Source: Candidatus Eiseniibacteriota bacterium (lineage in GTDB: Bacteria > ARS69). Taken from it: a DNA stretch of 11,362 nt. Position 1 is the stretch's first letter; each line of letters opens with the position of its first letter. The DNA lies in the NCBI GenBank assembly GCA_052390515.1, contig JBQTGV010000031.1, positions 1-11,362 of the forward strand, in the 5' to 3' direction. Positions 2-11,271 of this stretch are shown here, in pieces. The notes below the pieces were generated by a model that was not told the DNA's origin, searched no databases, and worked only from the letters and a program-made list of their open reading frames with translations. The translations under genes were made by a program, and so were the position numbers.

Positions 2-850
<849 letters not shown>

Positions 851-1667: not shown

Positions 1668-2279
1668 ATGACATCTGTCCGGCGCCACGCCCTCGCCCTG
1701 TCGGCCGCCGCCCTCGCCCTCTCCGGCTGCGGAGGGGGAGGCTCGGGCCCAGCCGGCCCGCCGCCTCCGGACCTGACCACCCCGGACGGGGCCATCCTGG
1801 CCCTGGAGGACTTCTACAGCCACCGCCTGGCCGATGAAGCCATCGCGCTGCTGGCCCCGAACTACCGCTTCTTCCCGGCGGAGCCCGAGTCCCTCGCGTT
1901 CCTCGGCGCCGGCGAGACCTCCTGGGACCAGACCCGCGAGGTGGCCATCCTCCGCGAACTGCTCGTCGAGGAGCGAAGCATCTGGATCGATCAGGTGCTT
2001 CTCGAGGTGACGACCGAGTCCATCTCCTACAGCTCCGACCAATCGGCCGTCGACATCGAGGCGAAGGTCGAGCTCGGCCTTCTGCTCGGCGTGGACCTGT
2101 ACCTCAAGGCGCAGTCCGTCATGATGATGCACTACGAGCGGGACGCAGAAGGGAACTACCTGCTCGTCGAGGAGCACGAGAGCCTGTTCCGCGACGACGA
2201 CGGTACGGTGCTCGCCGAGCTCACCGTGGGTGAGCACAAGGCAGCGGTCCTTCTCGGCCCCGGCGGCACGCAGAACTGA
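1668..2279 (+). CDS. Putative lipoprotein, likely paralog of the upstream lipoprotein
   Basis: MTSVRRHALALSAAALALSGC has an LSGC lipobox followed by a Gly/Pro linker. SD GGAG lies 9 nt upstream. It shares the LTxP / ALLxP / (Y/F)RF(F/Y)P / SWxxxxE pattern with 951-1598. Confidence 0.85.
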   Translation: MTSVRRHALALSAAALALSGCGGGGSGPAGPPPPDLTTPDGAILALEDFYSHRLADEAIALLAPNYRFFPAEPESLAFLGAGETSWDQTREVAILRELLVEERSIWIDQVLLEVTTESISYSSDQSAVDIEAKVELGLLLGVDLYLKAQSVMMMHYERDAEGNYLLVEEHESLFRDDDGTVLAELTVGEHKAAVLLGPGGTQN

Positions 2280-2286
2280 TACCTTG

Positions 2287-2313
2287 TCCTCGCCGTTTCC
2301 CGCGGCGAGGAGG
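2287..2313 (+). promoter_or_regulatory. Perfect 9-bp hairpin overlapping the Shine-Dalgarno site of the oxidoreductase gene
   Basis: TCCTCGCCG (2287-2295) pairs with CGGCGAGGA (2303-2311) around a 7 nt loop. SD GAGGAGG is at 2307-2313 and ATG at 2319. Confidence 0.6.
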
Positions 2314-2318
2314 CGTCC

Positions 2319-3359
2319 ATGCCCGCCACCATGGGTGCTGTGGTCTTCCGCGCGCACGGCGGGCCCGACGTGCTGGAGTGGGCGGATGTCCCTCGTCCCA
2401 TCCCGCAGCGGGACGAAGTGCTGGTGAAGGTCTCGGCGTGCGGTGTGAACCGGCTGGACCTCTTCACGCGCGCCGGCCATCCCTCGCTGAAGCTCCGGCT
2501 CCCGCACATCCTGGGCTGCGAGCCGGTCGGCACGGTGGCGGAGCTCGGTCCCGACGCGTCCGGCTTCGCCCCGGGGGAACGCGTGCTCGTGGCGCCCGGC
2601 CAGCTCCGGGAGTTCCACGCCGACCGGCGGCGACCCTACTCCACGTACCCGGACTATCACGTCGTGGGTCACGGATTGCCGGGCGGGTACGGAGAGTACA
2701 TGACCGCCCGCGCCGAGAACTTGGTGCGCGTCGGGGAGCGCTGGTCGCTGGAGGAGTGGGCGGCCACGCCTCTCGTGTTCCTGACCGCCTGGCGCATGCT
2801 CGCCGAGCGAGCGCGCGTCCGCCCCGGAGAGACCGTGCTGGTGATCGCCGCGGGCAGCGGAGTCGGCTCGTCGGCCGTACAGATCGCGCGGCATCTGGGG
2901 TGCCGCGTCATCGCCACCGCGGGAACGGACGCGAAGCTGGAGAAGGCCGCGGCCCTCGGCGCGCACCACGGCGTGAGCCACGCGGACGAGGACTGGCCGA
3001 AGGCGGTGAGGCGGCTCACCGGTGGACGCGGCGTGGACGTCGTCGTCGAGCACGTAGGGCAGGCCGTCTTCGCGAAGGCGGTCACCACGCTTGCGCACGG
3101 GGGGCGTCTCGTCACCTGCGGGGTGACCACGGGGACCGAGGCGAAGATCGACGTGTCGCATCTCTTCGTGAAACAGCTCTCGCTGCTCGGCAGCTACATG
3201 GGCGATTTCCACGAGCTCGTCGAAGTCGTCGCGCTGCTCGAGGCGGGTCATCTCCGGCCGGTCGTCGACCGCGTGCTCCCGGTGCGGGAAGCTGCCGCCG
3301 CGCATCGCCGGCTCGAGTCCGGCGAGCACTTCGGCAAGATCGTGCTGAAGCACGGGTAA
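2319..3359 (+). CDS. Medium-chain dehydrogenase/reductase (zinc-ADH-like / quinone oxidoreductase family)
   Basis: Motifs HGGPDVLE, EVLVKVSACGVNRLD, LPHILGCEPVGTV, nucleotide-binding AAGSGVGS, GVDVVVEHVG, GGRLVTCG and C-terminal HFGKIVL. Strong SD. Confidence 0.95.
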   Translation: MPATMGAVVFRAHGGPDVLEWADVPRPIPQRDEVLVKVSACGVNRLDLFTRAGHPSLKLRLPHILGCEPVGTVAELGPDASGFAPGERVLVAPGQLREFHADRRRPYSTYPDYHVVGHGLPGGYGEYMTARAENLVRVGERWSLEEWAATPLVFLTAWRMLAERARVRPGETVLVIAAGSGVGSSAVQIARHLGCRVIATAGTDAKLEKAAALGAHHGVSHADEDWPKAVRRLTGGRGVDVVVEHVGQAVFAKAVTTLAHGGRLVTCGVTTGTEAKIDVSHLFVKQLSLLGSYMGDFHELVEVVALLEAGHLRPVVDRVLPVREAAAAHRRLESGEHFGKIVLKHG

Positions 3360-3366
3360 GCACACG

Positions 3367-5061
3367 TTGGCGAGGGATGCCCTGCTGGCGGCGGCGGCCG
3401 CCGTTCTCGTCTTCGCCTCGAGCCTCGGCAACGGCTTCGCCTACGACGATGCGGTCGTCGTCCGTGACAACCCGCTCGTGGCGTCGGGTGGCTTCGGGGA
3501 GACTTTCGTAAGCCCCTACTGGCCTAGAGCCGAGGCGCACCGTTACCGGCCGGAGGTCACCTACCGGCCGCTCACGATCCTTTCGTTCGCGTTCAACCGC
3601 CGCGTGTTCGGCGAAAGCCCCTTCTCTTTCCACCTGACGAACGTGCTGCTGCACGCGCTGGCGGCGGCGCTCGTCGTCGTCCTGGCGCGCCGGCTCGGCG
3701 CGGGCCGGGGCGTGGGGTTCGTCGCCGCACTCCTCTTTGCCGTGCACCCCATCCACACCGAGGCGGTCGCGAACGTCGTGGGGCGCGGCGAGTTGCTCGC
3801 GGCGCTCTTCTGGATCGCCGCGCTGACCGTGCACGTCGCGCGGCCGCCTGCCGCCCCGCTCGGCGTGCTGCTGCTTTCGCTGGCGGCGTGTCTGTCCAAG
3901 GAAGTGGCCGTCACCCTCCCCGCGGCGATCGTCCTCATCGCCTGGTTCCGCGGAAACGCGTCCTCGCGGGACACGCTCACCGATCTCGCGGCAGCGGTCG
4001 TGGCGGTGCTCGCGTTCCTCGGGGCGCGCTCGGCGGTGCTCGGCGCGGCTCTGGATCCCGGTGCCGCGGCGACCTACTGGGATGGAGGGGACGTGGGCGT
4101 GCGCGTGGCGACGGCCTTCGCGGCCCTCGCGAAGTACGCGCAGCTCTTCGCCTTCCCGGCGACGCTCTCGGCGGACTACAGCTTCGCCCAGTTTCCCGCG
4201 GCGAGGAGTCTGGCCGATCCGCGCGCTCTCGCCGGGCTCGTGCTGCTTGCAGCGTGTATCGCCGGCACGGTCGCGCTCCTGCGCCGCCGGTCCCTCGCCG
4301 GCCTCGGCCTCGCGCTCTTCGTCATCGCGTTTCTCCCGGTGTCGAACCTCCTCTTCCCGCTCAACGTGATCCTCGCGGAGCGGCTGCTGCATCTTCCGTC
4401 GCTCGGTCTGGGTCTCGCCGCGGCCGCCCTCGCCGTGCCGCGGCTCTCGGCGGGCGCAGCCGGCCGCGTTGTCCTGGCCGTCGTCCTCGTGACCCTCGCC
4501 GCGAGGTCCGCGGTGCGCAATCCGGTGTGGGCGGACGACGCTGCGCTCTTCGAGCGGACCGTTCAGGATGCGCCGCGCAGCGCGAAGGCGTGGGTGGGGC
4601 TCGGGAGCGTCCGCGCGGGGCAGGGCCGCAGGGAGGAGGCGCGCGCATGCTTCGAGAAGACGCTCGGAATCGACGCCGACGAGTACGCCGCGCACGACGG
4701 GCTCGGGCACCTCGCGCTGGAGCGCGGCGAGTGGGTCGAAGCGATGGGGCACTTCCAAGAGGCGGCGCGCGTCAGTCCGGCGGAGCCGGCGCCGCTGTAC
4801 AATGCCGGCATCGTGCATCTGCGCGGCGGCAATCCGGGCCGCGCCGTCGAGGCGTTCGAGGCGGCGCTGGCGCTCGATCCGCGCCACGCCCTCTCCATCG
4901 AAGGGCTCGCGGTGGCGTGGCAGACGCTCGCCGTGCGGCAGTCGGCGGCGGGGATGAATGCGGAGGCGGAGAGCAGTCTGGTCGCGGGGATCGCGCGGGT
5001 CCGGGAGCTCGGGGGGCAGACGACGGAGCTCGAGCGCGTGCTGGAGGAACTACGGCGCTGA
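3367..5061 (+). CDS. TMTC-like membrane protein (GT-C-like glycosyltransferase domain, DUF1736-like segment, C-terminal TPR repeats)
   Basis: Motifs FAYDD, YRPLT, FHLTNVLLH, LLFAVHPIHTEAVANVVGRGELL, SKE, LSADYS, AERLLHLPSLG and RNPVW. Many hydrophobic helices, then about 3-4 TPR repeats. The TTG start is uncertain (no clear SD). Confidence 0.9.
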   Translation: MARDALLAAAAAVLVFASSLGNGFAYDDAVVVRDNPLVASGGFGETFVSPYWPRAEAHRYRPEVTYRPLTILSFAFNRRVFGESPFSFHLTNVLLHALAAALVVVLARRLGAGRGVGFVAALLFAVHPIHTEAVANVVGRGELLAALFWIAALTVHVARPPAAPLGVLLLSLAACLSKEVAVTLPAAIVLIAWFRGNASSRDTLTDLAAAVVAVLAFLGARSAVLGAALDPGAAATYWDGGDVGVRVATAFAALAKYAQLFAFPATLSADYSFAQFPAARSLADPRALAGLVLLAACIAGTVALLRRRSLAGLGLALFVIAFLPVSNLLFPLNVILAERLLHLPSLGLGLAAAALAVPRLSAGAAGRVVLAVVLVTLAARSAVRNPVWADDAALFERTVQDAPRSAKAWVGLGSVRAGQGRREEARACFEKTLGIDADEYAAHDGLGHLALERGEWVEAMGHFQEAARVSPAEPAPLYNAGIVHLRGGNPGRAVEAFEAALALDPRHALSIEGLAVAWQTLAVRQSAAGMNAEAESSLVAGIARVRELGGQTTELERVLEELRR

Positions 5062-5063
5062 GT

Positions 5064-5525
5064 CTACTTCCCGCGGCCGAGCTTCCGCACCACGTCGAAG
5101 TGACGCTTCTCCACCGGCTGCACGGAGAGGCGCGCTCCCTGCTTCGCCACCATCATGCCGGCGAGCTCCTTCGCGGCCTTGATCCTCTCGAGCGTCACGA
5201 CCTCGGCGAACCTCTCCACGAACTCGACGTCGACGACGAACCAGATCGGCTGCGCCTTCGTCGCCTTGGGCTCGAAGTACTCGGAGCGGCGGTCGAACTG
5301 CGTCGGGTCGGGGTAGCCGCTCTGGCACACCCGCGCAATGCCGGCGACGCCCTTGTCCTTGGCCACGGAGTGGTAGAAGAGCACGAGGTCGCCGGGCTGC
5401 ATCTCGTCCCGGAGGAAGTTTCGCGCCTGGAAGTTGCGCACGCCGCTCCAGAAGGTCCGGCCGTCCCGCTCGAGATCGGCGATCGAGTAGACGTCCGGCT
5501 CGGTCTTCATCAGCCAGCAGCGCAC
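5064..5525 (-). CDS. EVE domain-containing protein (PUA/ASCH-like nucleic-acid-binding fold)
   Basis: Motifs WLMKTEP, WSGVRNFQARNFLRDEMQPGDLVLFYHS, YPDPTQFD and RLSVQPV. Start re-assigned to GTG 5525 because AGGAG lies 10 nt upstream (5536-5540) and EVE proteins begin just before WLMK. Confidence 0.95.
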   Translation of the reverse strand: MRCWLMKTEPDVYSIADLERDGRTFWSGVRNFQARNFLRDEMQPGDLVLFYHSVAKDKGVAGIARVCQSGYPDPTQFDRRSEYFEPKATKAQPIWFVVDVEFVERFAEVVTLERIKAAKELAGMMVAKQGARLSVQPVEKRHFDVVRKLGRGK

Positions 5526-5643
5526 AGCGTCTTCGCTCCTCGTTCGCCGAAACCCGGGCGAAAGTGAAGCACGGACCAGCACTGGACGCCAACGTGGGCA
5601 TTGACGACCACGTCGTCGCCAAAGGGCCGGGCAGCCGGACCCA

Positions 5644-5719: not shown

Positions 5720-8380
5720 TTGAACCTGGCCGAGATCCTTCTCGACGAGATCCTGCCGCGCGTCGAGAAGCCGAGCCGCTACCTCGGCAACGAGCTGAAC
5801 GCCGTCCGCAAGGAGGCGAAGAAGGGCGATCTCCGCTTCGCCCTGGCTTTCCCGGACCTGTACGACGTCGGGCTCTCGAACCTCGGGATCCTCATCCTCT
5901 ACGACATCCTCAACCGCATGGACGGCGTGGTGGCCGAGCGCACGTACGCACCGGGCGTCGATCTGGAGGCGCAGCTCCGCGCCCGGGGCCTGCCCATCTT
6001 CTCGTGGGAGACGAAGACCCCGCTCGGGCAGTTCGATGCCATCGGGTTCTCCATCCAGTACGAGCTCGCCGCGACGAACATCCTGACCATGCTCGACCTG
6101 GCCGGGATCCCGCTCCGCGCCGAGGACCGCGGTGACGACGATCCCGTCATCTTCGCCGGCGGCCCGTGCGTGTATCACCCCGAACCGTACGCGCGCTTCA
6201 TCGACGCGTTCGTGATCGGCGACGGGGAAGACGCCGTCATGGGCGTGGCCAACTGCCTGCGTGAGACGCGCGGGATGCCGCGGCACGCCCGGCTCGATGC
6301 GCTCACCGAGGTTCCCGGGGTGTACGTGCCGCTACTCTATCCGATGATCACAGGCGCCGGCGGCGCCGTCCTGCCCGACCCTTCCGGCCCGAGGATCAAG
6401 AAGGCCCTGATCCGCAGCCTGGATACCGCGCCGTTCCCGACGAGCTACATCGTGCCGTACACGCAGCAGGTTCACGACCGCGTCTCGCTGGAGGTTCTGC
6501 GTGGCTGCACGCAGGGCTGCCGCTTCTGCCAGGCGGGGATGACCTACCGGCCGGTCCGCGAGAGAAGTCTCGAAACGGTGGATCGCCTCCTCCGCGAGAC
6601 TGTTTCCAAGACCGGTTACGAGGAGATCTCGCTCTCCAGCCTCTCGACCTGCGACTACTCGAAGGTCAAGCACCTGGTGCAGAACTCCGTGCAGGCGCTG
6701 ACGCCGCAGGCCGTCGCCGTGACGCTGCCCTCGCTGCGCACCGATTCCTTCTCCGTGGATCTCGCCGACATGGTGGCCACGGCGAAGAAATCCGGCATCA
6801 CCTTCGCGCCGGAAGCGGCGACGCCGCGGCTCCGTGCGCTCATCGACAAGTGGATCCCGGACGAGGAGCTGCTGCAGACCACCGGCTCGGTCTTCGCCCG
6901 CGGATGGAACAAGGTGAAGCTGTACTTCATGATCGGCCATCCGACGGAGACCGACGAGGACGTCGAGGCGATCGGCAACCTCGCGCTGCGCGTGCTGGAG
7001 CGCGGGCGGACGGTGAACCGCGGAGCGCAGGTGAACGTGGGCGTCTCCACCTTCATTCCCAAGCCGTTCACGCCGTTCCAGTGGGAGCGGCAGATCGACA
7101 TGGACGAGACGCGGCACAAGCAGGCGATCCTGCGCCGCATGCTCGCGGTGCGCGGCATCCGTTTCCGCCCGCACGAGGCGGAGAACTCCTGGCTGGAAGG
7201 CATCGTCTCCCGCGGGGACCGTCGCGTGGGCGGGCTCTTCGAGCTGGCCTGGCGCGAGGGCGCGCGGCTCGACGGCTGGACCGAGCACTTCGACTTCGCG
7301 AAGTGGCAGCGCGCCGTGGAGAAGTGGGGCATCGAGCCGGCGTCGCTGCTGCGCGAGCGCGGAATCGACGAGCCGCTTCCCTGGGATCACATCGACATCT
7401 TCATCGACAAGCAGTTCCTCGCCGACGATCTGTGCAAGGCGAAGTCGAAGATGCTGGAGGAGGCTCTGACCAACGACTGCCGCAACGGATGCCACGTATG
7501 CGGCGTGATCCACGAGGACAAGAAGCTCTGCAACACGATGATCCGGACCTACAAGAGCGGTCAGAAGGAGACGATGATCTGGAAGCAGGCGCCGCCTCCG
7601 AAGACGATCTGGGGCCGGCCCGACGTCGCGCGGATGCGCTTCCGCTTCACCAAGGACGACGACGTGCGGCTGCTCTCCCACCTCGAGCTGCAGCACGCCA
7701 TGGTGCGCGCTCTTCGCCGGGCGAACGTGCCGGCGTCCTACACGAACGGATTCAGCCCGGGGATGAAGCTGGCCTTCGGCGACGCGCTCCCGGTGGGCAT
7801 GTCCAGCGAGGGCGAGTACGGCGACGTCCGCCTGCACGAGGCGATGGATCCGGAAACGTTCGTGGCGCGGCTGCGCGACGTGGCGCCGGCCGGCGTCCGC
7901 GTGCTCGCCGCCACGCGTGTCGATCTGCATGCCCCGTCGCTCACGTCGAAAGTGGATGCGGCGCGGTATCTCGTGCGTCTCGGCCGCGTGGGCGTGACGC
8001 AGCCCGAGGCAGAGGCGCGCGTGCAGGATTTCCTGGCGGCAGGCGAGATGTGGGTGGAGAAGCGGGTGGCGAAGAAGCGCGGCGACAAGATCGTGCGCCT
8101 CGACGTGCGTCACATCGTCCGCGAGGTCGAGGTCGTGCTCCGTGATGGCCAGCCGTGCCTCGATGTCGTGGTCGGCCGGCTCTCCGGAAACCTCGGCCGC
8201 CCACGCGAGCTCGTCATGGCGCTCTTCGGTCTGGACCGCGCCGCCGTGCTCGACGTGAAGGCGCACAAGCTCGACTCCTTCGTGGATTTCGACGGCCGCC
8301 TCGTCTCGGTCGGCTGCGGATGGGCGGCCGGCCGCTTCGATCCCTGGTCGGGAGAAGTGCTCGCGCCGCTCGCGGTGTGA
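5720..8380 (+). CDS. TIGR03960-like B12-binding radical SAM protein fused to a TIGR03936/DUF2344-like radical-SAM-associated domain
   Basis: N-terminal VEKPSRYLGNELN and FPDLYDVGLSNLG. CTQGCRFC motif at 6506-6529, then LPSLR, TFAPEA, KLYFMIGHPTET, FIPKPFTPFQW, GARLDGWTEHF and LPWDHID. From about 7631: RFRFTK...LSHLEL...YTNGFSP..LAFGDALPVGMSSEGEY. Confidence 0.93.
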   Translation: MNLAEILLDEILPRVEKPSRYLGNELNAVRKEAKKGDLRFALAFPDLYDVGLSNLGILILYDILNRMDGVVAERTYAPGVDLEAQLRARGLPIFSWETKTPLGQFDAIGFSIQYELAATNILTMLDLAGIPLRAEDRGDDDPVIFAGGPCVYHPEPYARFIDAFVIGDGEDAVMGVANCLRETRGMPRHARLDALTEVPGVYVPLLYPMITGAGGAVLPDPSGPRIKKALIRSLDTAPFPTSYIVPYTQQVHDRVSLEVLRGCTQGCRFCQAGMTYRPVRERSLETVDRLLRETVSKTGYEEISLSSLSTCDYSKVKHLVQNSVQALTPQAVAVTLPSLRTDSFSVDLADMVATAKKSGITFAPEAATPRLRALIDKWIPDEELLQTTGSVFARGWNKVKLYFMIGHPTETDEDVEAIGNLALRVLERGRTVNRGAQVNVGVSTFIPKPFTPFQWERQIDMDETRHKQAILRRMLAVRGIRFRPHEAENSWLEGIVSRGDRRVGGLFELAWREGARLDGWTEHFDFAKWQRAVEKWGIEPASLLRERGIDEPLPWDHIDIFIDKQFLADDLCKAKSKMLEEALTNDCRNGCHVCGVIHEDKKLCNTMIRTYKSGQKETMIWKQAPPPKTIWGRPDVARMRFRFTKDDDVRLLSHLELQHAMVRALRRANVPASYTNGFSPGMKLAFGDALPVGMSSEGEYGDVRLHEAMDPETFVARLRDVAPAGVRVLAATRVDLHAPSLTSKVDAARYLVRLGRVGVTQPEAEARVQDFLAAGEMWVEKRVAKKRGDKIVRLDVRHIVREVEVVLRDGQPCLDVVVGRLSGNLGRPRELVMALFGLDRAAVLDVKAHKLDSFVDFDGRLVSVGCGWAAGRFDPWSGEVLAPLAV

Positions 8381-8859
8381 TGGCGGAGCTCGGTCCGGGG
8401 GCGAAGGCTCCCGCGTTCCACCTGCCCGGGCTCGCCTGTCGGAGCGTCGCGGTTCCGGGGGCCGCGCCGCTCACCCTGCTCGCCTTCACCAAGGCGTCGT
8501 GCCCCACTTGCCGCTGGATGTTCCCGTTCGTGCAGGCACTGCACGAGCGGGCGAAGGGTCTCGCCGTCGTCGGCGTCGCGTCGGACCCGGTCGGCGAAGC
8601 GCGGGCCTTCGTCGAGGAGCTACGTCTCACCTTCCCCATCGGCGTCGAGAGCGCGCCGTGGCCCGTCTCCGCGGCGTACGGCCTCACCAGCGTACCTACG
8701 CTCTTCCTGATCGAGACGGGTACCGTCCGTCTCGCCTCGGTCGGCTTCTCCCGCAGCGACTTCCTGGAGATCGCGAGCGCGGCGGCGGCGGCGAGTCCCT
8801 TCCCGGCGGGTGCGGCTGTTCCGGCGTTCCGCCCGGGCTGAACGTCGCGCAACGCCTAG
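8380..8859 (+). CDS. TlpA/AhpC-TSA (redoxin) thioredoxin-fold protein, probable selenoprotein (Sec at TGA 8839-8841; ends at 8841 if TGA is a stop)
   Basis: ATG 8380 overlaps the upstream stop (TGATG). Motifs GAKAPAFHLP, LLAFTKASCPTC (CxxC 8500-8511) and YGLTSVPTLFLI. The tail reads FRPG-TGA-TSRNA-TAG with a SECIS-like hairpin. The gene itself is near certain; the extended end is inferred. Confidence 0.85.
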
Positions 8860-8878
8860 CCGTGCGCTAGGAGACCGT
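8842..8878 (+). promoter_or_regulatory. Candidate bacterial SECIS element
   Basis: Stem CCTAGC (8855-8860) / GCTAGG (8866-8871) encloses loop CGTGC, with G second and followed by T. The loop begins after a 19 nt spacer from the TGA. Possible lower stem ACGTC (8842-8846) / GA-C-CGT (8873-8878). Confidence 0.7.
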
Positions 8879-8989
8879 CCGCGCTCCCGGTGGATTCGGT
8901 CACGGGCTATCGGGTACGATGCGCGTCTGTCCCGCACCTCGACGTCCGCCTCGCCCGAGGAGGCGGCATGCATCCTGGAGCCTCCACCC

Positions 8990-10279
8990 ATGACATGCCT
9001 CCCGCACGTGTCCTGCGCCGCCGCGGTATGCCTCGCCTGGTTCCTCCCGACCGCGTCCGTGGCCGGCGGGAATTGCCAGGGAACGTCGACCGGGTCCGTC
9101 CCGCTGATCGATCTCGGGGCCGGCAAGTACCAGGGCTTCGAGGGTGGGCTCTATCCCGGCGGCTCGAACGTCCGGCCCTCCGCGCACGAGGCCGCCGGCC
9201 TGCTGCGGGCCGCCCAGGTCGTCCCCCGCGACGCCGCCGGCCGCCCCGACCCGAACGGCAAGATCGTGATCCTGACGATCGGGATGTCCAACACGTCGAT
9301 GGAAACCGACTGGTTCGCGTTCTTCAGCCACTCGGATGTGCAGCGGAACCCGGCCGTGCTGGTCGTCAACGGAGCGCACGGTGGCCTGAGCGCGCAGGGC
9401 ATCTTCCTTCGTGGGAAACTCCCGCTGTCGTTCATCGATTCGCAGATCGCGCTCGCCGGCGTCACCCCCGAGCAGGTCCAGGTCGTGTGGTACAAGCTCG
9501 CCGACGAGGCCCCCCAGCAGCCGTTCCCGCAGCACGCCCTCGCGCTGGAGGCCGAGAACATCTGGATCATGCAGGAACTCCGGCGGACCTATCCGAACCT
9601 CGAGCTCGCCTACGTGTCGACCCGCATCTACGGCGGCTACGCGACCGCGGACGCCAGCCCCGAGCCGATCGCGTACGAGACCGGCTTCGCGTACAAGTGG
9701 ATGATCGAGCAGCAGGTCCTCGGCGATCCGTCGCTCAACTACGATCCCGCGCGCGGCGCGGTGATGGCCCCGTGGCTCTCCTGGGGTCCGTACCTCTGGG
9801 CGGACGGACTCACGCCGCGCAGCGATGGGCTCACCTGGGACTGCTCTGACTTCCAAGACGACGGGATGCACCCGAGCTTCCTCGGCGCGGTGACGGTCGG
9901 CGGGCATCTGCATTCCTTCTTCCGGAAGGACGCGACCACCGTGCCCTGGTACGTCGGGGGTGCTCCGCTGCTGTCGACGTCGGCGCCGATCCCCCGCGTG
10001 TCGGCATGGAGCGCCGGCGCGCCGCGGCCGAATCCGTTCGGCGCGCGCCTGTCGATTCCGCTGTCTCTCTCCGAGGCGGCTCCGGTGACCGCGACGGTCT
10101 TCTCCCTCGCGGGGCGGCGGGTGCGCGTGCTCCGTGACGGGACGCTCGGGTCCGGGCTGCACGAGCTCGTCTGGGACGGTCGCGACGAGTCCGGCCGCCG
10201 CGTCGTCGCCGGCACGTACCTGGTGCGCATCGAAGGTGCGGGCGAAGCCCGAACGGTGAAGGCCACGCTGGTTCGCTGA
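8990..10279 (+). CDS. Secreted SGNH/GDSL-hydrolase-like protein with a C-terminal FlgD-Ig-like (T9SS-CTD-like) domain
   Basis: ATG 8990 has GGAG 9 nt upstream and begins a signal-peptide-like N-terminus (…CLAWFLPTASVA). Motifs IGMSN (9278-9292), NGAHGG and DGMHP (9860-9874). Tail PNPF…VFSLAGRRVRVL…WDGRDESGRRVVAGTYLVR. Confidence 0.85.
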   Translation: MTCLPHVSCAAAVCLAWFLPTASVAGGNCQGTSTGSVPLIDLGAGKYQGFEGGLYPGGSNVRPSAHEAAGLLRAAQVVPRDAAGRPDPNGKIVILTIGMSNTSMETDWFAFFSHSDVQRNPAVLVVNGAHGGLSAQGIFLRGKLPLSFIDSQIALAGVTPEQVQVVWYKLADEAPQQPFPQHALALEAENIWIMQELRRTYPNLELAYVSTRIYGGYATADASPEPIAYETGFAYKWMIEQQVLGDPSLNYDPARGAVMAPWLSWGPYLWADGLTPRSDGLTWDCSDFQDDGMHPSFLGAVTVGGHLHSFFRKDATTVPWYVGGAPLLSTSAPIPRVSAWSAGAPRPNPFGARLSIPLSLSEAAPVTATVFSLAGRRVRVLRDGTLGSGLHELVWDGRDESGRRVVAGTYLVRIEGAGEARTVKATLVR

Positions 10280-10288
10280 TGCCCGCCG

Positions 10289-10306
10289 TTCGGGACGGAA
10301 CACTAG
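10289..10306. repeat. Second copy (one arm) of the CTAGTGTTCCG repeat, overlapping the sulfotransferase stop codon
   Basis: TTCGGGACGGAACACTAG versus TTCGCGACGGAACACGAG (833-850) is 16/18 identical. Its last 11 nt are the exact reverse complement of 805-815. Confidence 0.65.
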
Positions 10307-11271
10307 GCCAGCGCGTCCATGGTGGCTTCCTCGGCGGCGAGCTGCAGCGGCCGCACACGGTAGTACCACGTTCCCGGCAGGCGCTTGACCGACCACCGCG
10401 CACGGTCGAGCGCCTCCGCCACCCGCGCCCGCGCGAGCAGCGTCGGCGTGGCCGTCCCGCAGCAGGGGACGTAGCCCAGCTCCTTCATCGTGTCCCGCGC
10501 CAGCCACTCCACGAGCGCCGCCTGCGAAGGGGAGAGCTCCCGCTTCCATCGCATCGCCCGGCTGGCGTCGATCGCCGTGCGCGCTCGTCCGAGCCACCAG
10601 CGGTTCGCATCCTTCTCGTCGCCGGCCTCGAGCATCGCCGCGGAGAATGGTACGCCGACGAAGTCGCACAGCTTCCCGAGCTCGACCTCCGGGTTCGCCA
10701 CCAAGTCCTCGAAGACGACGCGGAAGTAGTTGGGCCGCCCCTGGACGGCGAGGGCGCCGCGCTCGCACTCCACCCACTGACGCGTGTTCGCCAGCACGCT
10801 CTTGTCGCCCCAGGGCATGCGCAGGAGCGATGCGACGACGTCCCGCGGGTCGCGGACGAGATGGACCAGCGCGCAGTCGGGGAAGAGGTTGCACAGCACG
10901 TCGGCCCGGCGCGCGTGATCCGGGGTCTTCTCGCCGAACCGCGTGCGGCCGTGGGCGCGCGCGCAGAACCGCATGAGGGACTCGAAGAAGGCCTCGTAGC
11001 TCGTGCCCTCCTCCATGAGCGCTTCGGCGAGCTTCGCCAGGTCCACGTCCTGCTGGCGAACACGCTTGGTGGCGAGGTAGGCGTCGACGAGGCGCCGCCG
11101 GTTGCGCTCGTTCCGCAGGTCGCCGAGACGCTGCCTTCGCCCCCAGACGAAATGCAGGAAGTACGTCTCCTCGCAGAGCCAAAGGTCAGGGTGGCGGTTC
11201 AGCGTCTCGAGCAGCAGCGTCGTTCCGCTGCGAGGCGCACCGACGACGAAGACAGGACCGGAGCGTGACAT
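10303..11271 (-). CDS. PAPS-dependent sulfotransferase (Sulfotransfer_3-like family)
   Basis: 5'-PSB loop VFVVGAPRSGTTLL, then LNRHP, FGEKTP, the 3'-PB motif VHLVRDPRDVVAS, FEDLVANP..LGKLCDFVG and terminal ELGY. Confidence 0.95.
   Translation of the reverse strand: MSRSGPVFVVGAPRSGTTLLLETLNRHPDLWLCEETYFLHFVWGRRQRLGDLRNERNRRRLVDAYLATKRVRQQDVDLAKLAEALMEEGTSYEAFFESLMRFCARAHGRTRFGEKTPDHARRADVLCNLFPDCALVHLVRDPRDVVASLLRMPWGDKSVLANTRQWVECERGALAVQGRPNYFRVVFEDLVANPEVELGKLCDFVGVPFSAAMLEAGDEKDANRWWLGRARTAIDASRAMRWKRELSPSQAALVEWLARDTMKELGYVPCCGTATPTLLARARVAEALDRARWSVKRLPGTWYYRVRPLQLAAEEATMDALA

Follow-up and report, generated by a model that had tools for sequence, protein, structure and literature searches.

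Does the small redoxin gene considered here end at the TGA where it would ordinarily be called, or is that codon read as selenocysteine (Sec) and followed by a short, conserved tail? The gene lies in an 11,362 nt stretch of DNA (the window), which represents positions 1 to 11,362 of contig JBQTGV010000031.1 (C31) in assembly GCA_052390515.1, a 4.27-Mb genome of a Candidatus Eiseniibacteriota bacterium with 70% G+C and 95% completeness. Comparison of the locus with its homologues, at both the DNA and protein levels, indicates that the UGA at 8839-8841 very probably encodes Sec.

The open reading frame (ORF) of the redoxin begins with the ATG at 8380 on the plus strand, where it overlaps the stop codon of the upstream gene (TGA 8378-8380) by one base (TGATG), and it specifies 153 residues up to the TGA at 8839-8841. 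An earlier, sequence-only reading of this DNA had proposed that the frame carries on beyond TGA 8839 as FRPG-TGA-T-S-R-N-A-TAG, and translation verified this: the C-terminus reads ...VPAFRPG, TGA (8839-8841), T-S-R-N-A and then TAG (8857-8859). In six-frame searches and in an alignment of family members (A4), homologues align across the TGA to redoxin residue 158/159. The features of the gene are as follows, SECIS denoting a selenocysteine insertion sequence.

8380..8859, plus strand: full-length gene of the predicted selenoprotein, a TlpA/ResA-like CPTC redoxin of 159 codons (Sec = 154) with stop codon TAG, from translation, Pfam matches and homologues.
8500..8511, plus strand: CPTC active-site codons (Cys41-Pro-Thr-Cys44); all four residues are invariant among the 20 members of alignment A4, and almost so in alignment A1.
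8818..8856, plus strand: C-terminal arm V-P-A-F-R-P-G-U-T-S-R-N-A, from alignments A1 and A4, the codon table and the AlphaFold model.
8839..8841, plus strand: in-frame UGA, very probably read as Sec (residue 154); TGA in 31/31 distinct sequences and Cys in 12 homologues.
8855..8871, plus strand: bacterial SECIS-like hairpin with a 6-bp stem (CCUAGC/GCUAGG) and the loop CGUGC, straddling the coding end and the 3' untranslated region; supported by the family-wide hairpin and by covariation.
8857..8859, plus strand: predicted true stop codon TAG, within the 5' arm of the hairpin; from the frame, and from a stop right after the Asn codon in 20/31 distinct homologous sequences.

Within the arm, P148, P152, G153 and U154 are invariant (alignments A1 and A4), and the motif of the family is h-P-x-h-[KR]-[PA]-G-U-x-[SA]-[KR]-N. 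Homologous DNA was gathered by six-frame searches and two collection scans, and a TGA was found right after ...PG in 46/46 homologous loci that hold the column, the window being one of them and three genomes being represented twice, through retrieval with two tools. These loci consist of 42 of 43 parsed rows together with L085 (the 43rd row, at first mis-registered), L087, L089 and L027. The sequences of L085, L087 and L089 read ...AK[AGS]G-TGA-GSRN-stop, and the distant, low-G+C locus L027 reads ...FKPG-TGA-GALNKR-TAG. The contig of L083 ends just before the column, and that of L072 soon after it. Six weak thioredoxin-fold matches with in-frame stops (L031, L032, L042 and L045-L047) were taken as unrelated because they are without the PG-U motif, and a Paucibacter locus (L054) was dropped, its match covering 14 residues only.

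When 45 loci are compared from position -9 to +18, 31 distinct sequences remain, and the Sec column is TGA in every one of the 31. At the second position after it, Ser is specified by TCG (14), TCC (11), TCA (1) or AGC (1), or is replaced by Ala (4); at the third, Lys or Arg occurs through eight codons; and at the fourth the codon is AAC (16) or AAT (12). The fifth position is a stop codon in 20 of the 31 sequences, divided between TAA (10), TGA (6) and TAG (4). All three stop codons thus occur in the column of the true stop, but TGA alone in the column that follows PG. The codons of the tail vary, synonymously and within six-fold families, while x-[SA]-[KR]-N persists, a pattern that argues for selection on the tail at the protein level. 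The prediction that x-S-(K/R)-N would be conserved after the TGA column is borne out by the codon table and the alignments. An outcome in which homologues carry variable stops after PG and nothing conserved downstream, named beforehand as one that would speak against Sec, was not what was found: TGA is present in 46/46 loci and the tail is kept.

The same boundary is seen from the protein side. All 25 of the 25 database homologues end exactly at ...[FL]-[RKQ]-P-G, at identities down to 35% and with P148 and G153 invariant; conservation right up to the final residue is typical of selenoproteins that have been truncated. Two homologues bear NCBI names, in both cases "TlpA family protein disulfide reductase", and in both the called protein stops at PG. 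The 20 read-through products of A4 were then made into a profile, and its search against 1.84 billion representatives gave 218 representative proteins at E < 1e-30, and C-termini were surveyed in the best 150 of these 218, of which 141 are <=260 aa. Among these short proteins, 119 end at the x-[P/A/S/H]-G column, while in 12 the frame runs on uninterrupted through Cys into the same tail, for example P0039 (...RPGCRSKN), P0122 (...KPGCGSKN), P0142 (...LGCASKN) and P0165 (...RPGCGSMN). The Sec column is also occupied by Ser once and by Gly once, and the other 8/141, which are fragments or have divergent C-termini, end at other places. The ranking of representatives is biased towards Sec forms, since these went into the profile. 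Cys is the usual partner of Sec at homologous columns. PG-C-x-S-(K/R)-N tails, which the sequence-only reading had expected in similar redoxins, are therefore real (P0039 and P0122 are examples), and its question of whether homologues have Cys or TGA at this column is answered by both, with TGA in 46/46 loci and Cys in 12/141 short proteins. Its expectation that standard annotation truncates the redoxin also agrees with the called homologues, which end at PG (25/25, and 119/141 short representatives).

Downstream of the UGA, a perfect 6-bp stem is formed by CCTAGC (8855-8860) and GCTAGG (8866-8871), enclosing the loop CGTGC (8861-8865). Counted from UGA 8839-8841, the stem begins after 13 nt and the loop after 19 nt, so that the perfect stem, CGUGC loop and 19-nt spacer described earlier were confirmed in the sequence. 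In the bacterial SECIS (bSECIS) model, as it is summarized in PMC13188914, the loop is 3-9 nt, the stem 4-16 bp, one of the first two loop nucleotides is a G (commonly in GG or GU), the distance from the UGA is 16-37 nt and the minimum free energy (MFE) is <= -7.5 kcal/mol. The hairpin of the window falls within these limits in its loop, stem, loop G, spacing (19 nt) and MFE (-7.6 kcal/mol); for the loop G and the spacing this had been claimed earlier. Since only about five codons follow the UGA, the SECIS overlaps the true stop codon and the 3' untranslated region.

Similar hairpins are found across the family. In most sequences they start 12-20 nt after the UGA, and their loops include CGUGC, CGUGA, GUG, GGC, GGUC, GGU, GUU and CGGGU, with a G-containing loop 19-25 nt after the UGA in 30/33 distinct sequences. 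A tighter hairpin criterion was passed by 26/29 distinct homologous downstream sequences and by 4/4 further loci (30/33), compared with 5.9% of the other TGA sites that these loci contain (121/2053) and 5.0% of shuffles (288/5800), and the three sequences that failed it (L025, L055 and L086) still carry hairpins of 7-8 bp. The inner five base pairs occur in 14 distinct versions across the family. A MAFFT alignment of the downstream regions (A3) mis-registered the hairpins and was replaced by a covariance-model alignment, in which the model was made from seven same-geometry sequences and 38 matches were aligned. In this alignment, 95.6% of 113 cells pair and 6/6 pairs change on both sides. Double changes are seen in 49 cells, against 18.9 ± 2.7 in shuffles (0/500 reach 49), and the covariation score of 0.532 compares with 0.124 in shuffles (0/500) and 0.02-0.14 with slid partners. 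Stem covariation, put forward earlier as a check on the hairpin, is thus seen as compensatory changes at all six pairs.

The exact 17-mer of the hairpin occurs once in the 4.27-Mb genome and its arm pattern three times, so it is not a generic repeat, and the idea of a hairpin recurring genome-wide, raised beforehand as a possible objection, was rejected. The other two copies of the arm pattern are at C141:1382 and C117:472. The former has the same arms and another loop (CCTAGC GGAGC GCTAGG) and lies downstream of an RNA polymerase beta'-like frame; no in-frame UGA context was seen at this site, and the hairpin there is probably unrelated. A scan of window positions 8300-9100 found no promoter or terminator-like site, the hairpin being without a T tract, and no Rfam family was detected in window 8700-9000 at E up to 10.

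The genome is equipped for Sec insertion. A search for selA, selB, selC and selD, proposed at the outset, found selD (427 bits), selA (541 bits) and selB (371 bits), each over its curated cut-off, as well as a tRNA-Sec (71.8 bits) that ARAGORN also calls as tRNA-SeC with anticodon tca. The selA gene is present in 11/12 family genomes, which are all the genomes available for the phylum, and the twelfth, without a match, is 82% complete; selA is also present in G027, a distant carrier of the family. A test of the TGA form against selA across the phylum was set aside, because the phylum consists of these same 12 genomes, 11 of them with selA, and the comparison does not discriminate. No Sec-type formate dehydrogenase was found in the genome (the best FdhA-type match scores 58.9 bits against a cut-off of 814 and is without an in-frame stop), nor was a Sec-type SelD, selD having no in-frame stop. 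As neither was found in this small phylum, the redoxin could be one of the selenoproteins that justify keeping the Sec machinery. The contigs concerned in these searches are C36, C109, C71 and C114, and a molybdopterin-oxidoreductase-like frame was observed near selB on contig C71 (17887-18168 vs 20085-21956).

The redoxin matches the Pfam domains AhpC-TSA (PF00578, 40.9 bits) and Redoxin (PF08534, 28.9 bits), both over cut-off. An AlphaFold model obtained with alignment A4 has a predicted local distance difference test score of 95.5 and a predicted template modelling score of 0.91, with the last two ten-residue blocks at about 94. Among solved structures it most resembles chains of the DsbE, ResA and TlpA type (Z 17-19; root-mean-square deviation (rmsd) 1.7-2.0; model residues 4-137), and the model accordingly assigns the protein to the TlpA/ResA/DsbE-type thioredoxin fold, with an N-terminal beta-hairpin, a central insert and the CxxC motif at the start of helix 1. 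The thioredoxin domain is followed by a Pro-rich C-terminal arm of about 25 residues that ends in a P-G turn and then Sec; in the model, residues 150-151 and 154-155, which flank P152-G153, are in beta-bridges. No PDB chain aligns by sequence past position 140 of the 167-position profile. Structurally, the majority of matches extend to model residues 135-138, but 5cyy and 2hyx reach 150, and 2cvb, 2ywo, 2ywi and 3u5r, entries with longer C-termini, reach 159. Family members begin about 40 residues before the CxxC with M-x-Q/E-L-x-x-G-x-x-A-P-x-F, and the alignment to the ResA profile starts at about position 35. No hydrophobic run of more than 6 residues was found in the first 35 residues of 20 members, and since such a leader is missing the redoxin is probably cytoplasmic and signal-less.

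These features lead to a proposed mechanism in which SelB, with Sec-tRNA(Sec), would bind the hairpin at 8855-8871 and insert Sec at residue 154. The ribosome would then melt the hairpin, add T-S-R-N-A and terminate at TAG 8857-8859 inside the hairpin 5' arm, with some termination at the UGA giving an expected by-product of 153 residues. The C-terminal arm would dock on the domain and present the selenolate as an outward-facing reactive group next to the CPTC centre. There, Sec154 would meet an oxidised substrate (peroxide, disulfide or sulfenic acid) and then form a selenenylsulfide with Cys41, which Cys44 would resolve to give a Cys41-Cys44 disulfide, to be re-reduced by the thioredoxin/flavoprotein reductase system of the cell. 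Taken as a whole, a Sec-decoded, cytoplasmic selenoprotein of 159 residues with a docked-arm relay is an explanation that we hold with good confidence. The specific three-chalcogen relay Sec154-Cys41-Cys44, which is argued by analogy, has a chance that falls somewhat short of even.

A number of observations weigh against Sec decoding and agree with the plainest alternative, in which translation simply stops at the TGA after Gly153, the hairpin is an element of transcript end or stability, and the tail is non-coding. TGA is the commonest stop codon of this 70% G+C genome (68% of long-ORF stops), it is where gene callers terminate the protein, as do the sources of the 25 homologues without exception, and a TGA in close relatives alone proves little, as relatives are not independent. 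Dinucleotide shuffles of the 65 nt at 8836-8900 fold as well as the sequence itself (z = +1.24; 178/200 at least as well), and the bare 6-bp hairpin, at -7.6 kcal/mol, is just inside the limit of the bSECIS model. The tighter criterion passed by 30/33 sequences was set post hoc, and covariation was counted on an alignment fitted to the structure of the model, with the hairpin gapped out in about 10 rows. In L027, over the 60 nt that follow its TGA, a T run comes directly behind the hairpin (AAGCGAU AGUU AUCGCUU), which might therefore double as SECIS and intrinsic terminator. Given the frequency of TGA among stops, the argument for Sec is carried by the contrast between the stop columns and by the coding pattern, not by the bare TGA count; and as the hairpin is unremarkable as a single sequence, its significance comes from comparison across homologues. 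An ordinary stop is hard to square with a tail kept at the amino-acid level, with a second stop that uses all three codons beside a first column that is TGA in 31/31, with twelve homologues in which an open frame leads through Cys into this tail, or with P152 and G153 invariant right up to the supposed end, and the hairpin region of the window (8300-9100) has no terminator-like site; we consider this alternative hardly tenable. Very improbable, too, is that the UGA is read through as near-cognate Trp, Cys or Gly, or that products of 153 and 159 residues are both functional isoforms whose ratio reports selenium supply. Because release factor 2 and Sec insertion are in competition in bacteria, a truncated product is indeed anticipated, and the short form would retain the whole thioredoxin fold and the CPTC site. 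Read-through without Sec, however, is countered by the complete Sec machinery of the genome, by a hairpin with SECIS geometry and a G-containing loop that is not any known read-through signal, and by Cys (12 proteins) being the sole repeated residue at the column, where Ser and Gly occur once each.

If Sec decoding is accepted, the main functional rival of the relay is a carrier role, in which Cys41, Cys44 and Sec154 would serve to hold or transport a metal, a metalloid or a selenium/sulfur species (for example in Hg, As or Cu handling, or selenium delivery). A role as metal ligand is suggested for the Sec near the C-terminus of SaoB, SaoC and UXX-star in passages of PMC13188914, and the gene neighbourhoods of the redoxin are without a redox partner in most clades. 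The fold and the CPTC motif, however, are those of a thiol-disulfide oxidoreductase, no metal-resistance genes were seen among the neighbours scanned, and a flavoprotein disulfide reductase adjoins the gene in three lineages (CoA-disulfide-reductase-like in L085 and L089, TrxB in L027); a carrier role is rated as unlikely. Two observations also count against the redox relay as proposed. The peroxiredoxin motif PxxxTxxC is absent, the sequence before and at Cys41 being L-A-F-T-K-A-S-C (consensus F-Y-K-A-S-C), and the active site K-A-S-C-P-T-C has Lys at -3 from Cys41 and no Pro at -7, which argues against a classical peroxiredoxin mechanism at Cys41. In addition, neighbourhoods differ between clades, and no shared partner or substrate is indicated by them.

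Among known systems, the closest in structure are TlpA, ResA and DsbE (CcmG), which have the same fold with a CxxC (CPTC) at the same place (3gl3, 4nmu and 1st9; Z 18-19, rmsd 1.7-1.9, about 130 residues). These relatives are periplasmic and have an anchor or signal, whereas the redoxin is without either and adds a conserved 25-residue arm ending in PG-Sec-x-S-K/R-N. When seven members of the family were compared with NCBIfam (release June 2026), no model came near its curated cut-off for any of them. The best scores were for ResA (69 bits vs 170) and MauD (47.6 vs 188.6), and the cut-offs of ResA (NF002854), MauD (TIGR02661), StoA (NF041202) and DsbE (TIGR00385) were not reached.

Several bacterial selenoprotein families resemble the redoxin in part. 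Those named Prx-like UxxC, Redoxin UxxC and UGC-containing TlpA/WAxxUGC (NF041054) are likewise bacterial and SECIS-dependent, with a thioredoxin fold and Cys/Sec pairs. According to Table 1 of PMC13188914, Sec replaces an active-site Cys in the UxxC and UGC families, whereas the redoxin retains its full CPTC, with Sec about 110 residues further on. The WAxxUGC model gave 24-25 bits against a cut-off of 300, and the active site of the redoxin, SCPTC, has Cys. The VPGUxxT family (NF041383, OS_HP5), listed in the same table, is a thioredoxin-like selenoprotein with a motif that also contains P-G-U, but in the redoxin the residue at U+3 is K/R, not T (VPGUxxT was compared by its listed motif and its model), and NF041383 had no match among the seven members even at E up to 10. 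In UXX-star families 1 and 2, KCU-star and the Cys-Cys-COOH protein SaoC, Sec lies within a few residues of the C-terminus, as it does in the redoxin. With Sec in such a position, the SECIS must sit at or beyond the stop codon, and annotation truncates the proteins. These C-terminal-Sec families are described in PMC13188914 with other folds and motifs, whereas in the redoxin family Sec is the fifth- or sixth-last residue and has a distant CxxC for a partner; none of the NCBIfam models of UXX-star, KCU-star and SaoC families matched the redoxin family (seven members).

A further likeness is found outside bacteria. Animal thioredoxin reductase has a C-terminal Gly-Cys-Sec-Gly tail on a flexible extension outside the primary dithiol, and electrons are presumed to pass between a buried dithiol and substrates by way of this tail, as they would in the redoxin. 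Both proteins have Sec on a C-terminal extension with Gly before it, but the animal enzyme is a non-homologous flavoprotein with an adjacent Cys-Sec pair and a eukaryotic SECIS in the 3' untranslated region, whereas the single Sec of the redoxin would pair with Cys41. The resemblance to the C-terminal Sec tail of the animal enzyme, which is treated in the abstract of PMC10840350, is therefore put forward as a functional analogy that we infer. As for the element itself, it lies within all constraints of the bSECIS consensus (bSECISearch) and is minimal, with stems of 5-9 bp. Recombinant mammalian thioredoxin reductase has reportedly been made in E. coli with a SECIS placed just after the stop codon, and the redoxin family would be a natural counterpart of this design.

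A 2026 review lists 119 families in its Table 1, including thioredoxin-fold proteins with Sec in UxxC, CxxU and UGC (PMC13188914). A CxxC redoxin with a PG-U-x-S-K/R-N tail is not among the 119 families of that table, and term searches in the main texts of PMC2398784, PMC5029168, PMC12013277 and PMC13326102 gave no passage on such a redoxin. No description of the family was found in the literature searched, a survey in which the families of Haft & Tolstoy 2025 were represented through the review table and NCBIfam. The family is absent from the inventories checked, yet absence there is not proof of novelty, and its logic is that of known bacterial Sec decoding.

The remaining genes of the window follow the order thiC (3' part), zinc alcohol dehydrogenase, tetratricopeptide repeat (TPR) membrane protein, EVE-domain gene and radical-SAM gene, after which come the redoxin, a FlgD-Ig-domain protein and a sulfotransferase.

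2-808, plus strand: 3' part of thiC.
2319-3359, plus strand: zinc-type alcohol dehydrogenase.
5064-5582, minus strand: EVE-domain protein (180 bits).
5720..8380, plus strand: fused B12-binding radical SAM protein (TIGR03960 and TIGR03936/DUF2344; 686 and 172 bits, over cut-offs), the upstream context of the redoxin.
8969-10279, plus strand: FlgD Ig-like-domain protein (C-terminal domain 36 bits, over cut-off; type IX secretion system (T9SS) sorting tail 22 bits vs 23, sub-threshold).
10303-11271, minus strand: sulfotransferase.

The product of 8969-10279 is probably a secreted or surface protein. Long antisense ORFs are also present, for example 6332-8266 (minus) and 8900-11182 (minus), the latter without a Pfam match, and are probably artefacts of the 70% G+C content.

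By tblastn, the radical-SAM/DUF2344 protein is found in the redoxin locus of the window (L021) and in nine others (L022-L026, L051-L053 and L056), although L051, L052 and L053 appear to duplicate L023, L022 and L026, respectively. It was not found in the other clades, and the adjacency is missing from about 30 other loci. As this adjacency is limited to the clade of the window, it was treated as lineage synteny, and the radical-SAM gene was set aside as a candidate for a tail-modifying enzyme. For a soil clade, three loci were scanned (L058, L061 and L073), and each has a divergent gene upstream (about 330-1500, minus) for a type II/IV secretion ATPase (T2SSE, about 157 bits); several more loci of this clade have a 358-aa frame at the same place. 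Downstream are often adenylate-cyclase/STAND NTPase genes (L061, L064 and L081, about 2000-3480) or proteins without a Pfam match, and these soil-clade neighbours have no obvious redox link. In L085 (2-1444) and L089 (207-1484), a CoA-disulfide-reductase/NADH-oxidase-like flavoprotein is encoded directly upstream on the same strand (300-321 bits vs 579), and in L027 (2250-3200) a thioredoxin reductase gene (TrxB, 392 bits, over cut-off) is divergently adjacent. It is possible that these flavoproteins are dedicated reductants, and their occasional presence fits a redox role for the redoxin.

The nearest protein-atlas clusters have up to 574 members each and are mostly labelled Acidobacteriota. 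We put forward only tentatively, and with some doubt, the wider proposal that this is an uncatalogued and very common selenoprotein family, in which a Sec on a docked arm makes a bacterial three-chalcogen relay, and that it could explain the retention of the Sec machinery. If true, a large family, largely truncated in the databases searched, would be added to the approximately 119 known prokaryotic selenoprotein families, and called proteins of this redoxin kind that end at ...[KR]-[PA]-G merit re-examination for a TGA and an x-S-K/R-N tail. The family would also provide many natural, minimal SECIS elements that overlap the stop codon and 3' untranslated region, which would be useful for SECIS models and gene callers. 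Bacteria too would then be seen to put Sec on a C-terminal arm beside an intact CxxC, a design otherwise known from animal thioredoxin reductase, and the family may explain why selA, selB, selC and selD are kept in some soil bacteria without classical selenoproteins.

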